From an uncultured delta proteobacterium (GTDB lineage Bacteria > Myxococcota_A > Polyangia > Palsa-1104), in assembly GCA_963785725.1 (NCBI GenBank), contig CAWAWS010000047.1:131883-195882 (forward strand): a stretch of 64,000 nt of DNA. Reading direction: 5' to 3'. The translations under genes and the position numbers were made by a program. Of this stretch, positions 35,033 through 43,095 are shown piece by piece. The number at the start of each line of letters is the position of its first letter. The stretch's first letter is position 1. A model generated the notes under the pieces. It was not told where the DNA came from. It ran no database searches and saw nothing but the letters and a program-made list of their open reading frames with translations.

Positions 35033-38000
35033 TTAGCGCGCTTCGTCCGCCGCTTGCCAGCGCCAGCGCGCCAGATCCGAGCGCGTCGGCAAGCCGGCGC
35101 CATGCCAGACCACCCGGCCAGTCGTCGTATCGAGGACGAGCGTCGACGGCAGCGGCGGGCTGTCGCCGACGAGCGTGGCGATCGCCGCCGCGCGCGCGCC
35201 GGCATAAGGCAGGAGCGCGTGCCGCGCGCCGTGCGCCGCCGACCAACGGGCGACGGCCGCGTCGTCATCCTTGGGCTCGACGCTGACGCCGACGAGGTCG
35301 AGCTTGTCGGCGCCCTGTCCGCTCGCCGCCAGCGCCTCGATACGCGGATTGGCCCGCACGCAGGCCTCGCACCACGTCGCGAACAGGTCGACCAAGAGCC
35401 AGCGCGCATGCCCGCGCAGCGACGCCGGAATGCCGTCGAGGATCTGCTTGCCGAGCGCATCGGCGTCACGGCCGGGCAGCGGCGGATTCGCAGTCGTCGT
35501 CGGCGGCGCCGCGCGGCCGCCGTAAATGCCCGGCAGCTCCTTCAGCCCTTTGCCTTCGACCACGCGATACATCTTGTCGGCGGCGACGTCGTGGAACGTG
35601 CGCGACTCGCCGCCGGCGAACTTCACGACCAGCTCGTCGACCTTGGCGCAGCGATCGAGCCCCAGCGTCAACGACAGCGAATTGACCGTCGCAAAGCCGC
35701 TGCCGATCTCCACTTCGCGCGTCTGCACGAGGCCGCAGGCCTTGGCCGTCACGCGCGCGCCGACCGCCTGCGCCTGCCGCGTGCCTTCGATGCGCAAGCC
35801 GACGAAGTGCCGCTGCGACGCCGGACCCACCTGATTGTGATAGACGCGCAAGAGCGGCACGTTGCGATTGACGACAATCAAGTCGCTGAAGCCGTCGCGA
35901 TCGAGATCGGCCACCGCCATCGCGCGCGCGTCTTCGAGCCCATCGGCGCCCGACAAATACGACAACTCGACGACGTCCTTGGCCGCGCGCGACACGAACA
36001 TGCGATCGCGCTCGCGCCCCGACAAATCCATACGCGACGCCGCGCGCGGGCCGTTATCCATGGCATTGCGTGAGACGCCTTGCGAGGACACGCCTCGCCA
36101 ATAGTCACTTCAAAGATCGCGGACGAATGGATCGTCCGGTGACACCGACGAGGTAAAGAAGCCGTTGGGCGCGAAGATGTCGAGCCAACCGTCGCCGTCG
36201 ATATCGACGAACTGCGACGAATAAGACCAGCTGGCATTACGCGCGGGGGCAAACGCCGCCGTCGCCGTCAAATCGCGAAAACGCCCCTCGCCGTCATTGC
36301 ACAAGAGCGTGTTGCCGCGCGCTGCTTGATGACGGGCCGTGCGCGCGTCTTTGTCGTGATCGGCCGAGAAATTGCGCTCGTCGGACATGATGCGCTTGCC
36401 GGCCGTGGACTGCATCGCCGTCGCGTACAAATCCAAATCGCCGTCGTTGTCGAAGTCGGCCAGGGACGCGCCCATGCCGAAGAAGATCTGATCGGCGCCG
36501 CTCGACTGCGAGATGTCGACATAACGCCCTTTACGCCACAAATAGAGGTTCGCCGGCGCAAAGTCGTTGGCGACATACAGATCGGGATGGCCATCGCCGT
36601 CGAGATCGCCGAATGACGCCTGCAGCGAATTGCGAAACAGCGTCAGCCCCAAGCCTTCGGTGGCGTCGAGGAACAGGCCGTCGCCGCGATTGAGCATGAC
36701 GACATTGCGCGGCCCGAACTGAAAGATATTGATGTCGAACTTGTGGTCGGCGATGGCCTGTCTCGCCGCCGGCATCGCCTCCATCAGCATCTTGAGCTCG
36801 GCCGGATCGAGGCGCGCCGCCACCTGGCGATTGCCGTCGATGAGCGCCTGCAAGTGGCCGTGAAAGTCGTGCGCCGCGGTCGCGAAATAGATGTCGAGCC
36901 GGCCGTCGCCGTCGAGGTCGGCGAGCGAAATGGACGAGACGTGCGCCGGCAAGCCGTAGCGACCGGCCTCGCCCGGCCACATGCGGCCGCCGGCGCCGAA
37001 GCGAATCTCCGACGGCGTGAACCAGTGGCCGAGGACGACGTCGAGCCGGCCGTCGCCGTCGAGATCGGCGAACGCCGCCGCGCTCACGTCGGCGACCTCG
37101 AGGCCGAATTCGCGCGTGCGGTCGGAGAAGCGGTGCCCGCCGTCGTTGTGCAGGAGCGTCGCCGGCCCGCTCGCGTCCCACACGAACAGGTCGTCGAAGC
37201 CATCGCCGTCGATGTCGACGACCACGACGCCGGGATGCGCGTCCATCGCCAGCGGCAGCAGATGATCGAGCGCCGCCGATGGCGGCTGCTTGTCGTCGAG
37301 CAGCATGCGATGCAGCTCGTCCGACGCCGAGTGCGTGCGCAGCCGCGCCTGCGTCTCGGCCGAGACGCCGCCGAGCCAGCGATCGGTCACGTCGGCGAAC
37401 ATCAGCGCCGGCGCGCGCTGCGTCTCGTATTTGGTGACGACGAAGCGGGTGATGCGCCAGCGACCGTCGCGCTTGGCGAAGCGCACGTCGGCGGCGCCGC
37501 TGTCGTGCCGCCAGCCGCTGCCTTCGCGCCCGCCGAAGTCGAGCGCCACGTACGCGCCGAAGGTTCCGTCGGGATATTCCTTGGCGTCTTTGGGCTTGAA
37601 GACCGACCGCTCCACAAACGTGTAAGGCTTGAACCAGGCGCGAAAGTGCGCGCCGACCGCCGCGCTCGACAGGGGCGCCGGCGCCGTCACCACATAGGGC
37701 GTGACCGTCATGCCGTCCGGCAAGGGCTGGCTCGGCTGCGCCGTCGGCCAGGCGAATTCGACGCTGTCGGCGAAATAGGGCGCGCCCATTTGATCGCCGA
37801 GCTCGTAGGCGCCGCGCGCCAGATCCTGCAGCAGGCCTTCGATGATGCGGACTTTGAACTCGACCGGCCAGCGCGTCTCGTAGTCGGGCTCGTCCGCGTA
37901 GAGCTTGCGCACGAGCGCCTCGTAATCACGCGCTTCGCTCGGCGTCGACGTCGGGGATTCGGTGGTGGCGCTGGGAGGTGGCGCTTCCGCTCGTCGGGTG

Positions 38001-38059
38001 CAGCCAGCCAGCAGCGACAACCCGACGAGCGCGTGCAGCGTAGCGGCGAGGCGGGTCAC
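35033..38059 (-). CDS. Lipoprotein with FG-GAP repeats, ASPIC/UnbV and TlpA-like thioredoxin; in-frame TGA at 36110-36112 (candidate selenocysteine)
   Basis: LAGC lipobox; repeated DxDGDGxxD; ...PFVRDL-TGA-SDYWRGVSSQ in a single frame; AVGARV...LTLGL ASPIC; FATWCEAC. Confidence 0.8.
36082..36098 (-). promoter_or_regulatory. Candidate bacterial SECIS element
   Basis: mRNA: UGA-AGUGACUAUUG-(GCGAGG-CGUGU-CCUCGC); 11-nt spacer, 6-bp stem, GU-containing loop. Confidence 0.6.
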
Positions 38060-38068
38060 ACGGTCATC

Positions 38069-39709
38069 TTATTGTGAAAGCGCGGTCGTGACGAGCTGGA
38101 TCTCCGTATCCGACAGCTCGCGGAAGCGCGGCGGCGGCATGCGGCGGAAGACATCGTCCGGCAAGGTCAGGCGGTGAATCGCCAGCTGCTTCTCGGCCGC
38201 GGGCATCGTCGCCAGCTTGGTCACGTCGAAGCGAGCGCGCGTCAGCGTCTGGTCCAAGTTCGGGTTGTGGCACTGCTGGCACATGTTGACCAGGATGCCC
38301 TGCCCGTTGCCCGCCGTGACCAAGTCGGCCGACGGACGGAACGACAGGTCTTGGTAAGCCGACGCCAGGAACACGTCGCGGATGTCGGTCGTCAGCGGCG
38401 TGCCCGTCTGCGTCGCCAGATAGGCCGCGGTCGCGGTCGCCAAGAGCGTCGGGTCGGTCACGCGGTTCTCGTGATACGGCGGCGGGATGTCGAGGCCCGT
38501 CTTGTGGTTGTCATAGAGCACGAGCCAGCCGGCGCTCGCGCCCTTGTCGAGCAGCGTCGTCGTGTCGAACTCGTTCGGCTGCGTCTTGAAGCCCTGGTTC
38601 TCGACGAGACCTTCGAGCGCGGCCGGGTCAGGACCGCCGCCGTTGAACGGACCGGCGCCGTTGTTGTTGGTCGTGTTCGGGTTGAAGATGACCGCGCCCG
38701 GGATGCCGGCGTAGGTCTCGGTCGTGCCGTGCGCGGCCTGGTAATCGGCGAGCATCTGCTGACCATTGGAGCGGTTGTTGCGGAAGAAGTGACCCCACGG
38801 ATTCTGCAGCTCCTGCTGGCGCAGAATCTTCGGCGTCCCCGTCGTCGTCTGATGGCACTGCAAGCAGTCGAAGATCGTGTTCTTGATGTCGACGTCCTGA
38901 TACAGCGAGTAGCTGGTGAAGTTGCTCTCCACCTTCGGCGTCAGCAGATCGTCGAGCGAGCAGCCGGCCGCCGTGGCGTTGCAGGCCTGCGCGAAGCGGA
39001 AGAGGAAGAAGTTGAGGTCGCCCTTGCCGCCGTTGGCCGTCGGATCGTTGGACACGAGCTCGACGAACTGCTCGCCGCGCACGAAGCCCATGGCGACGAA
39101 GCTGGCCAGCGGCTGCGCCTTGTTGGTGCGACCGCGCGTGATCGGCGGCGTGAAGATGATGGCGCGCGGGTTGATGGCCGACGTAAAGCGCGTCACCAGC
39201 GACGTCGAGTGGCCGGTGAGCACGAACGCCGGGTTGCCGTTGTTGCCGTTGGTGATGTTGCCGGCCTTGAAGTCGAGGCCGACGAGCTTCTGCAAGTCGA
39301 CCAAGCTGGTGATGACGGGCGGCGTCGCGCTGGCGCAGAACGCCTTGGAGACCGCGTCGCCGTTGTTGCGCGCGCACAAGGCCGCCAGCTGCACGGCGCC
39401 GGTCTTGAATCCGACGAGCGTCGACAACGGATCGACGACCGAGTCGAGCGGATCGGCGCCGCCATCACCGGTCGCGACGCCGGCATCGGGCACCGCGGCC
39501 GAGCCACCGCCGCCGGCGTCGCCGGTCGTGCCGCCGCCGGCGTTGCCGCCGGTTCCGACGGTCCCGCCAGCGCTGCCGCTGCCGCCCGCGCTCGACCCAG
39601 GATCGTAGCCGTTGTTGTTGCCGGTCCCGCTGTTGGACTGCATCCCTGCATTTCCGAGACAGCCGCTGACCAGGAAGAACAGAGACACGCTGCAGGCAGT
39701 ACGAACCAT
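38069..39709 (-). CDS. Diheme c-type cytochrome lipoprotein
   Basis: VSGC lipobox, Gly-rich linker, CLQCH and CQQCH, distal RRMPP; ends 9 nt before the FG-GAP gene. Confidence 0.8.
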   Translation of the reverse strand: MVRTACSVSLFFLVSGCLGNAGMQSNSGTGNNNGYDPGSSAGGSGSAGGTVGTGGNAGGGTTGDAGGGGSAAVPDAGVATGDGGADPLDSVVDPLSTLVGFKTGAVQLAALCARNNGDAVSKAFCASATPPVITSLVDLQKLVGLDFKAGNITNGNNGNPAFVLTGHSTSLVTRFTSAINPRAIIFTPPITRGRTNKAQPLASFVAMGFVRGEQFVELVSNDPTANGGKGDLNFFLFRFAQACNATAAGCSLDDLLTPKVESNFTSYSLYQDVDIKNTIFDCLQCHQTTTGTPKILRQQELQNPWGHFFRNNRSNGQQMLADYQAAHGTTETYAGIPGAVIFNPNTTNNNGAGPFNGGGPDPAALEGLVENQGFKTQPNEFDTTTLLDKGASAGWLVLYDNHKTGLDIPPPYHENRVTDPTLLATATAAYLATQTGTPLTTDIRDVFLASAYQDLSFRPSADLVTAGNGQGILVNMCQQCHNPNLDQTLTRARFDVTKLATMPAAEKQLAIHRLTLPDDVFRRMPPPRFRELSDTEIQLVTTALSQ

Positions 39710-39898
39710 GCTGGGCGCCTCTTCAAGGCCAATGCCAGCGATCGGGCGCATACGCTTTCAACGACTTGGCGTGTAAACAGCTCCGTTACAGTACGGTCGG
39801 TGGGAGGGGAAAAATTCCTGACTTGGTCCCTTTGCTCCCATCGCAAGCGGCGTTTACGCAACCTGTCTGCCGCAGCTGCGCGACGGGCTGCCCACGCT

Positions 39899-40813: not shown

Positions 40814-40943
40814 GTGATACATTAACCCAAGGCGTCGACTGCTCGTGGCCGCGGTCCCAGGTTGCGGAGCCCAGGCCCCGGCGAAGCAGCGACGAAGCAC
40901 GGTTTTGCATCAATGGAATCTACGACTTGTATTGACGCGGCAC

Positions 40944-40960
40944 GCGGCACGCCGTTCGCA
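40944..40960 (+). promoter_or_regulatory. Putative sigma54 promoter
   Basis: CGGCACGCCGTTCGCA = GG-N10-GC, about 43 nt upstream of the ATG at 41003. Confidence 0.45.
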
Positions 40961-41002
40961 AACGCTGGCCTGAACCAGCGCTTCGTCGAACGAGGAGATC
41001 CC

Positions 41003-41602
41003 ATGCCGCACGTACCGGTTCCCGCAGGCGTCCCCGGAATCTTGAGCCTGTTCGCGTTTCGCCCCGAGACCGCCGGACCGCTCAACCAGCTGGCCGAGGT
41101 GCTGCTGCGCGGGCCGTCGACGCTCAGCCGCGGCGAGCGCGAGCTCATCGCCTCCTACGTCTCGTCCAAGAACGGCTGTGAGTTCTGCTGCGCGTCGCAC
41201 AGCGCGTTCGCCGCGCATCAGCTCGAAGGCGGCGCCGCGCTCGTCGCGGCCGTGAAGGCCGACCCGGCGACGGCGGCGATTTCGCCCAAGCTGGCGGCGC
41301 TGCTCGTCGTCGCCGGCCAGGCGCAAGAGGGCGGCCGCAGCGTCACCGCCGAGGCCGTCGCCGCCGCGCGCGCCGCCGGCGCCAGCGACGTCGAGGTGCA
41401 CGACACCGTCCTCATCGCCGCCGCTTTTTGCATGTTCAACCGCTACGTCGACGGCTTGGCCACGTCGGTGCCGCCCGATCCGGCGATGTACGACGTCGTC
41501 GCCAAGCAGATCGTCGAGCACGGCTACGTGCCGACGACGCCGCGCAGCGCCGAGGCGCCCGCGCTCGACGCCGACGCCGAGGCGCTGCGACACACGGCAT
41601 GA
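41003..41602 (+). CDS. Carboxymuconolactone decarboxylase/AhpD-like peroxidase-related protein
   Basis: RBS GAGGAG; ERELIASYVSSKNGCEFCCASH and FCMFNRYVDGL. Confidence 0.9.
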   Translation: MPHVPVPAGVPGILSLFAFRPETAGPLNQLAEVLLRGPSTLSRGERELIASYVSSKNGCEFCCASHSAFAAHQLEGGAALVAAVKADPATAAISPKLAALLVVAGQAQEGGRSVTAEAVAAARAAGASDVEVHDTVLIAAAFCMFNRYVDGLATSVPPDPAMYDVVAKQIVEHGYVPTTPRSAEAPALDADAEALRHTA

Positions 41603-43095
41603 ACGAGTGGGCGCGCAAGCTTGGCCGGCCGCTGGCCGCGACGGCGATCGCGCTCGTCGCGGCGGCGCCGCTGGCGCGCGCCGACGACACCTTCTTGAAG
41701 CAGAGCCGCGGCGTCGGCCAGCCGGCCGACCTCGACGAGTGGCGCGCGCACGAGCAGCGCGGCGGGCTGTCACCCTACCCCGCCGCGCCGCCGGGCACGC
41801 CCAATCCCAAAGGCGGCCTGCGGCAGTTCGGCGGCTCGAGCAAGAGCTCGTTCGGGAGCACCGACCTCAACGAGCCCTTCGCGCAGTTTCGCGCGCGCAT
41901 GGAGAAGCAGCGGCCGGAGGTCGATCGCGCGGCGCGGGCGGCGCTCGAGGCGCGCTTCGATCTACGCTGTCGCGCCGACCACTCGCTGACGATGTCGCGG
42001 GGCAAGCCGCAGCCGGTCGGCCCGGCCGCGCGACTGCCGGCGGCGACGACGAATTGGGAGCAATACGCGGCCTTGTCGCCCGACGAGCTGCGTCGCCGTG
42101 ACGACTTTCCGTGGAAGCCGCTCGATCATCCGCTGCATTCGACGGCGCACATGGTCTTCCCGAACCAGTGGATCAAAGTCCATCCCGAGCACGAGCGCTT
42201 CGACGTCGGCCTCGATCTGCCCGACTGCTTCCTGCCCGAGTTTCCGCCGCCGCTCTATCTGACGACGCATCCGGAGATGGGTGACGTCTCGCGTGGCGTC
42301 GAGATTACCTACGGCAACTACTTCGACATGTTCAATGGGCTGCTCACGCCCGAGCAGCTCGACGGCCTGCGCATCTTGGTGACGCCGTTCCAGACGACCT
42401 GGTTCAATGTCACCCATCATCGAACGACGCGCGAGCCGTCCGCCGGCGTCACCTGCTTCTCGTGTCATGTCAACGGCCACGCCAACGGCGCCATCGAGCT
42501 CATGCCCGACTCGCGGCCCAACTACGCGCGCCTGCGCGCCGACACGCCGACGTTGCGCGGCAACTATTCGTTCCTCCTCTTCTCGGCCAAGCGCGCCATT
42601 CGTTCGCTCGACCATTTCGCGGCCATCGAAGAGTATTTCGACGGCGACACGACCCTGCTCGCGGCCATCGGCGGGCGCGACCTCGACCGCGCGCAGACGA
42701 ACCACGTCGGCGACTTCAACGCCATCATCGACTTTCCGCCGGCGCCCAAGCTCGACGTCTTCAATCGGCTCATCCCCGACAAAGCGACCGCCAGCGAGCT
42801 GCGCGGCGAGAAGATCTTCGAAGGCAAAGGGCGCTGCATCGGCTGCCATCCGCCGGCGACGCAGTTTCAGGACAACTCGATGCACGACTTGAAGGTCGAG
42901 CGCTTCTATCGCGGGCGCGCCGAAGGGCCGATCAAAACCTACACGTTACGCGGCATCAAAGACTCGCCGCCCTACCTGCACGACGGTCGCCTCTTGACGC
43001 TCGAGGACGCCGTGCAGTTCTTCGACGTGGTGCTGCAGACCAAGCTGACGCACGACGAAAAGCAGGATTTGACCGCTTATCTGCGCGCGCTTTAG
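41599..43095 (+). CDS. Secreted diheme cytochrome c peroxidase/MauG-superfamily protein
   Basis: Signal peptide; CFSCH and CIGCH; DTPTLRG and KTYTLRGIKDSPPYLHDGRLLTLED; ATGA overlap with the upstream gene. Confidence 0.88.
   Translation: MNEWARKLGRPLAATAIALVAAAPLARADDTFLKQSRGVGQPADLDEWRAHEQRGGLSPYPAAPPGTPNPKGGLRQFGGSSKSSFGSTDLNEPFAQFRARMEKQRPEVDRAARAALEARFDLRCRADHSLTMSRGKPQPVGPAARLPAATTNWEQYAALSPDELRRRDDFPWKPLDHPLHSTAHMVFPNQWIKVHPEHERFDVGLDLPDCFLPEFPPPLYLTTHPEMGDVSRGVEITYGNYFDMFNGLLTPEQLDGLRILVTPFQTTWFNVTHHRTTREPSAGVTCFSCHVNGHANGAIELMPDSRPNYARLRADTPTLRGNYSFLLFSAKRAIRSLDHFAAIEEYFDGDTTLLAAIGGRDLDRAQTNHVGDFNAIIDFPPAPKLDVFNRLIPDKATASELRGEKIFEGKGRCIGCHPPATQFQDNSMHDLKVERFYRGRAEGPIKTYTLRGIKDSPPYLHDGRLLTLEDAVQFFDVVLQTKLTHDEKQDLTAYLRAL

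Follow-up and report, generated by a model that had tools for sequence, protein, structure and literature searches.

Do two open reading frames (ORFs) that lie end to end in one frame, parted only by a TGA, encode two proteins or a single protein containing selenocysteine (Sec)? The question is raised by a locus in a 64,000-nt stretch of DNA from an uncultured delta proteobacterium (assembly GCA_963785725.1, contig CAWAWS010000047.1, positions 131,883 to 195,882 of the forward strand), here called the window, in which all coordinates are given unless labelled otherwise; the source genome, labelled G000, is 88% complete. The initial annotation had noted that the minus-strand ORFs at 36110-38059 (649 aa) and 35033-36091 (352 aa) share a reading frame, and the frame running from 38059 to 35033 is indeed interrupted by nothing but the TGA at 36112-36110. 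If this codon is read as U, the product has 1,008 residues and a single U, at position 650, and is encoded by a read-through gene (35033..38059, minus strand) with a GTG start and a TAA stop, and orthologs are 63-64% identical to it through the TGA in alignments spanning nearly the full length. From the evidence set out below we consider it highly probable that the TGA is decoded as selenocysteine in a SelB-dependent manner, and very likely, as judged from sequence, that one exported lipoprotein lies behind the two called genes.

Conservation of the in-frame TGA

Among the 120 listed protein homologs, 31 end exactly one residue before the TGA (42-90% identical over the N-terminal half, and known from protein sequence alone), which agrees with the expectation of the initial annotation that gene callers would split the gene. 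At the DNA level, 39 loci scoring at least 100 bits against a profile of the site carry a TGA (28 loci) or a codon for Asn (7), Glu (3) or Ser (1) at the equivalent position, and five further loci from a class-wide search all have TGA. This gives a total of 33/44 related loci with TGA, including the window locus, and none of the 44 with TAA or TAG, bearing in mind that the loci were selected through similarity searches and do not amount to a census. Besides 18 other genomes of the same phylum and metagenome contigs, the sources of the TGA loci include records whose titles name Planctomycetota, Verrucomicrobiota, Acidobacteriota, Gemmatimonadetes and Gammaproteobacteria, and the conserved TGA that the initial annotation had anticipated in homologs is thereby found across phyla. 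A first scan of metagenomes with a single protein as query gave no match. On one metagenome contig (L044), two paralogs of the family lie within 6.9 kb, both with a TGA, a hairpin and a CxxC redoxin.

This distribution bears directly on an alternative in which the TGA is a sequencing error or has arisen in this genome by a recent nonsense mutation. The assembly does have frameshifts elsewhere, but the TGA is shared by 32 other loci, and two soil-metagenome contigs cross the site with, among the differences listed, none at 36110-36112 (a further 527 differences lie outside those listed); we regard this explanation as refuted by the cross-genome conservation and its remaining probability as negligible.

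A second alternative is that the TGA is a true stop between two separate chains, the second of which restarts at a GTG 7-8 codons further on. In 20/28 TGA loci, the seventh or eighth codon past the TGA is GTG, ATG or TTG, and G000 holds a decayed partial copy of the post-TGA half alone (C2:31869-32299, minus strand, L028; 85-95% identical, with a frameshift and an internal TAG), both of which are compatible with an independent second chain. In 8/28 loci, however, no start codon is found before codon 12-44, and codons 1-6 past the TGA keep the amino acids of the sense-codon homologs while being exchanged synonymously. Over the 75 codons 3' of the TGA, the differences from three orthologs are mostly at third positions. 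The absence of TAA and TAG at all 44 loci also argues against a stop, as does the layout of the protein, since the first half is a predicted lipoprotein whereas the second half lacks a signal peptide, and a cut at the TGA removes the seventh blade of the predicted propeller. We consider two separate chains highly improbable.

A SECIS-like hairpin downstream of the TGA

The TGA is followed by 11 nt and then by a hairpin resembling a selenocysteine insertion sequence (SECIS), located at 36082..36098 on the minus strand (+12 to +28 from the TGA) and consisting of a 6-bp Watson-Crick stem and a 5-nt loop whose second and third positions are GU; the perfect stem described by the initial annotation is thus present at 36098-36082. 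These features agree with the bacterial SECIS (bSECIS) rules as given in section 5 of PMC13188914. The hairpin is nevertheless open to three objections. Taken alone it is not beyond chance (z = -0.83, with 35/200 shuffles folding as well in this DNA of 67% GC), and only 10/28 TGA hairpins beat 95% of synonymous-codon shuffles, because the peptide itself favours pairing; the third objection, concerning loop classes, is given with the pair counts below. The weight of the hairpin therefore comes from its conservation and covariation across homologs, and not from its own stability.

With regard to conservation, at least 5 of the 6 base pairs form at the fixed register of +12 in 32/33 TGA loci versus 1/11 sense-codon loci, and a fold at -7.5 kcal/mol or better is found in 28/28 TGA loci of the first set versus 5/11 others. 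For the pair counts the loci were first split by loop size, a step which favours the structure; counted in this way, the 19 sequences with a 4-nt loop are 95.6% paired with 12 double changes, a level reached by 0/500 shuffles, and include one covarying pair that joins two third-codon positions (CG 14, GC 3, UA 2), while the eight distinct sequences with a 5-nt loop are 97.9% paired with 8 double changes. Covariation of the hairpin, one of the checks proposed at the outset, is accordingly seen in both loop-size sets. A scan with Rfam gave no match at the TGA site and a single chance match elsewhere (E 0.93). In a genome-wide scan for hairpins after coding-like breaks these were found at 2/197 TGA, 0/350 TAG and 1/159 TAA codons, which is a rough background only, as the codon filter of the scan missed the window gene itself.

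Selenocysteine machinery

The initial annotation had pointed to selA, selB, selC and selD of the source genome, and all four are present in G000: selA, selB and selD score above curated cut-offs, and selC is represented by a single copy of tRNA-Sec (73.4 bits), which is the sole tRNA with a TCA anticodon that was found. The selD gene of G000 appears to be of the Cys form, and a search with PF00384 found no Sec-type formate dehydrogenase in this genome. A molybdopterin oxidoreductase gene of Cys form in G000 has a frameshift (C7 ~80445, minus strand, L206/L208), which may be an assembly indel or a broken gene. A second Sec candidate of G000 lies at C5:206959 on the plus strand, in a gene which we take to be AhpD/CMD-like; a Cys precedes its in-frame TGA by three residues, and a hairpin of the same type has its loop at +18.

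The gene selA is present in 26/26 other TGA-bearing genomes (21/21 and 5/5 in two sets) compared with 246/400 genomes in a sample of the phylum, although related genomes among those counted are not independent, and tRNA-Sec was found in 17/21 other TGA-bearing genomes. These data are relevant to a third alternative, in which the TGA is read as another residue, be it Cys via a variant tRNA or Trp via near-cognate reading, or in which the genetic code is altered. Recoding of UGA to Cys by variant tRNAs occurs in some Deltaproteobacteria, which counts in favour of this explanation. However, the single tRNA with a TCA anticodon scores as tRNA-Sec, Trp is not found at the site in any of 98 full-length homologs, TGA is the ordinary terminal stop of many of these same genes, and the TGA forms co-occur with selA in all 26 other genomes, so that decoding as another residue appears very improbable. 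For decoding as selenocysteine, the less comfortable finding is that sense-codon forms are often located in genomes with a capacity for Sec (a selA match in 6/9, tRNA-Sec in 7/9), and Sec is therefore dispensable for much of the family. The only locus with a Ser codon (L121) uses TCA, a single base away from TGA, and the search of its genome gave neither selA nor tRNA-Sec.

Residues replacing selenocysteine

In 98 full-length homologs, the residue at the site is Asp (23), Ser (21), Glu (18), Ala (7), Cys (6), Asn (5), Gln (4) or one of several others (11), with a gap in the remaining 3. The initial annotation had expected TGA to alternate with Cys, and this is borne out to the extent that Cys forms occur and that Cys is the residue in P0003 and P0182, the closest relatives of full length, but the alternation is weak, with Asp, Ser and Glu dominating. 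It had also held that variable residues other than Cys would speak against Sec. We do not draw that conclusion, as the TGA forms keep the hairpin in sel-positive genomes, whereas the sense forms lose it. In a FastTree phylogeny of 131 rows, from which three rows gapped at the site and three with short N-terminal parts were left out, Sec and non-Sec forms are interleaved and at least 11 changes are required; the tree is unrooted, and gains are indistinguishable from losses in it.

A possible redox role for Sec650

In the mechanism that we propose, SelB and tRNA-Sec would decode the TGA at the downstream hairpin, giving one exported lipoprotein, and the Sec would be a redox-active nucleophile attacking an extracytoplasmic disulfide, a peroxide or a bound ligand. 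The CxxC redoxin fused to the same protein would re-reduce the Sec, and in some redoxin-less forms a neighbouring Cys would do so. A stop at the TGA would yield a product with six of the seven blades, and selenium supply would then gate the amount of full protein.

The state of the redoxin speaks for such a role. Where a redoxin is detected, its CxxC is intact in 19/19 Sec forms and 3/3 Cys forms, compared with 12/68 other forms, and it is also intact in all five TGA loci found later. Nine of the 28 Sec loci have no redoxin, and four of these nine have a Cys directly before the Sec. A graded decay is apparent on one branch (starred in the tree): L137 combines TGA with a perfect hairpin and CxxC, whereas L118, L036 and P0145 all have Glu at the site; of these, L118 retains CxxC next to a damaged hairpin, L036 is without CxxC and its hairpin is worse than that of L118, and P0145 is without CxxC. 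A second position whose conservation tracks Sec is Ser680 (36020..36022, minus strand), a candidate active-site partner that was picked post hoc from a scan of about 100 columns: Ser is found there in 25/25 Sec forms, 2/5 Cys forms and 29/95 others, with a median p of 0.016 on 11 independent pairs.

Several findings weigh against a redox role, or against a necessary link between Sec and the redoxin. Cys replaces Sec in just the six homologs mentioned above, which is atypical for a catalytic thiol. Twelve forms with neither Sec nor Cys retain CxxC, and on eight independent pairs the link between Sec and CxxC falls short of significance (median p 0.25), with 3.3 pairs in the same direction and 0.0 in the opposite one. 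Finally, 5/28 Sec loci have neither a redoxin nor a neighbouring Cys.

These findings lead to the most serious rival, which accepts that Sec is decoded but has the selenolate serve as an anionic metal or ligand contact, as a helix cap or as a selenium-dependent expression switch, without being cycled by the redoxin. The residues that replace Sec are mainly Asp, Ser, Glu and Asn rather than Cys, that is, anionic or helix-capping residues, as would be expected from such a role, and the existence of Sec forms without a partner thiol fits as well. The same applies to six residues outside the repeats, D499, R556, W611, D648, W654 and R655, which are near-invariant in both Sec and non-Sec forms; their equal conservation suggests a pocket common to both. 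On the other side, every redoxin-bearing Sec or Cys form has an intact CxxC, which is usually decayed otherwise, and the neighbouring Cys is confined to those Sec forms that have no redoxin. On balance a non-redox Sec seems unlikely to us, and we favour, with moderate confidence, a Sec that acts as the redox centre of a calcium-blade propeller resembling CRTAC1, with the redoxin of the same protein re-reducing it. Given the topology of such propellers, in which an insertion at this place would face away from the calcium loops, the Sec would be situated on the opposite face, beside D499, R556, W611, D648, W654, R655 and S680.

Protein architecture

The initial annotation had described a lipoprotein of about 1,008 aa with Sec in its propeller region and a C-terminal thioredoxin, and motif and domain matches are compatible with this layout. 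All features are on the minus strand. A predicted lipoprotein signal peptide with the lipobox Cys at residue 20 (38000..38059) was identified by inspection of the sequence, and a Cys is present at residues 9-35 in 28/31 of the N-half homologs, from which export and lipid anchoring of the 1,008-residue protein are predicted. The following N-terminal domain (about residues 40-215, 37415..37942) is possibly SnoaL/NTF2-like; the Pfam search gave no family for it at E 0.05, and one homolog has a sub-threshold match to SnoaL_4 (E 0.0038).

Next come seven FG-GAP calcium-blade repeats (35825..37234; PF13517 E 4e-39, PF01839 E 2e-25). As proposed at the outset, the break falls inside this region, with six blade motifs 5' of the TGA (residues 282, 332, 381, 485, 535 and 619) and the seventh 3' of it (718). 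The predicted Sec650 (36110..36112) is in a long insertion after the sixth blade motif, 31 residues past it. The seven motifs, together with a match to CRTAC1 structure 9etn (E 9e-23), the sole match in PDB, suggest a closed seven-bladed beta-propeller. The alignment to 9etn does not take in the insertion that bears the Sec. A match of the Pfam family TcdB_toxin_midN (E 0.08, below cut-off) was rejected as a cross-match of the FG-GAP repeats.

Downstream of the propeller are an ASPIC/UnbV domain (residues 765-831, 35567..35767; PF07593 E 4.5e-12, above cut-off) and a putative C-terminal TlpA/AhpC-TSA-like redoxin (35069..35416) with C897-x-x-C900 at 35371-35360. The redoxin of the window protein has a WCxxC motif and sub-threshold matches only (PF00578 E 0.003, NF047696 E 1e-4), while that of several homologs is above cut-off.

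Genomic neighbourhood

Nine nucleotides upstream of the Sec gene is a gene for a predicted lipoprotein with two CxxCH haem motifs (38069..39751, minus strand), which is cytochrome c-like. An ortholog of this cytochrome (62-76% identical) is located directly downstream of the Sec gene in 3/3 close loci (L215, L216 and L217), and as these three orthologous loci are from another order, the gene pair has been kept with its order swapped. A search of 14 other genomes of the taxonomic family to which G000 belongs, several of them incomplete, gave no match to the Sec gene at E 1e-50. Together these observations make a transferred two-gene module possible.

We also considered the cytochrome as a partner of the whole family. 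Its relatives are present in 49/401 genomes of the class compared with 6/401 for the Sec gene, and it was not found near more distant loci of the family within flanks of 1.5-6 kb; with this wider distribution and its absence near distant loci, a family-wide partnership was rejected, and the cytochrome may be a partner in this subfamily only. The fullest version of our proposal, in which a multi-phylum group of exported propeller enzymes has Sec in a face pocket, with the redoxin recycling it, and is here wired to the di-haem cytochrome c lipoprotein, is a tentative one.

Other neighbouring genes were also noted. At L215:9928-11508 (minus strand), just upstream of the orthologous Sec gene, is a gene with the appearance of a vanadium-haloperoxidase/PAP2-type protein, judged by motif, and at L218 a second FG-GAP gene without Sec adjoins the Sec gene. 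In the window, the stretch 40862-43095 (plus strand), divergent from the Sec gene cluster, contains a CMD/AhpD-family gene (PF02627, E 1e-9) and, after it, a gene that may encode a protein similar to di-haem cytochrome c peroxidases (weak match to PF03150).

Comparison with known systems

Table 1 of PMC13188914, a 2026 catalogue of 119 selenoprotein families and the one covered here, does not list the family. NCBIfam 20.0 has no model over the Sec site for the window protein and 26 aligned members, term searches of the main texts of PMC12013277, PMC13326102 and PMC13745706 and of four deep-Sep supplements did not find the family, and the papers listed by full-text literature searches include none on a selenoprotein family with FG-GAP, UnbV or CRTAC1 features. 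On comparative sequence data, these proteins likely form a selenoprotein family that spans several phyla, is not yet catalogued and has a fold absent from the listed selenoproteins.

If this is correct, a widespread exported family would join the bacterial selenoproteome, as its first family with this fold. It would also break the working rule that Sec is paired mainly with Cys in homologs, on which discovery pipelines lean; with Sec replaced mostly by Asp, Ser and Glu, searches for Sec/Cys pairs would under-detect the family. Literature searches found no described biochemical function for bacterial CRTAC1/ASPIC-UnbV proteins, and if Sec650 is a redox centre, the present family would provide the first catalytic handle on them, as a specific residue with a built-in reductant would make their function directly testable.

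The type case of bacterial SelB/SECIS decoding is fdhF of E. coli, and as in other selenoprotein genes of this kind, the window gene has a UGA, a downstream bSECIS-like hairpin, and selA, selB, selC and selD in its genome. The difference is in the product, as none of the 119 families catalogued in PMC13188914 has the fold or the domain set of the window protein. With CRTAC1 and the ASPIC/UnbV proteins the window protein shares the seven Dx[DN]xDG blade motifs and a PF07593 domain above cut-off, and the neighbours of the Cys form in the ESM Atlas have the same three Pfam families; compared with CRTAC1, it adds the N-terminal domain, long insertions after blades 3, 5 and 6, the Sec site and the CxxC redoxin. 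As in the Redoxin/TlpA/Prx-like selenoproteins (UxxC and UGC forms in Table 1 of PMC13188914), a predicted thioredoxin-fold domain is part of the polypeptide, but unlike in these proteins, both Cys residues of the redoxin are kept, and the predicted Sec lies outside it, at a distance of about 247 residues upstream within the propeller.

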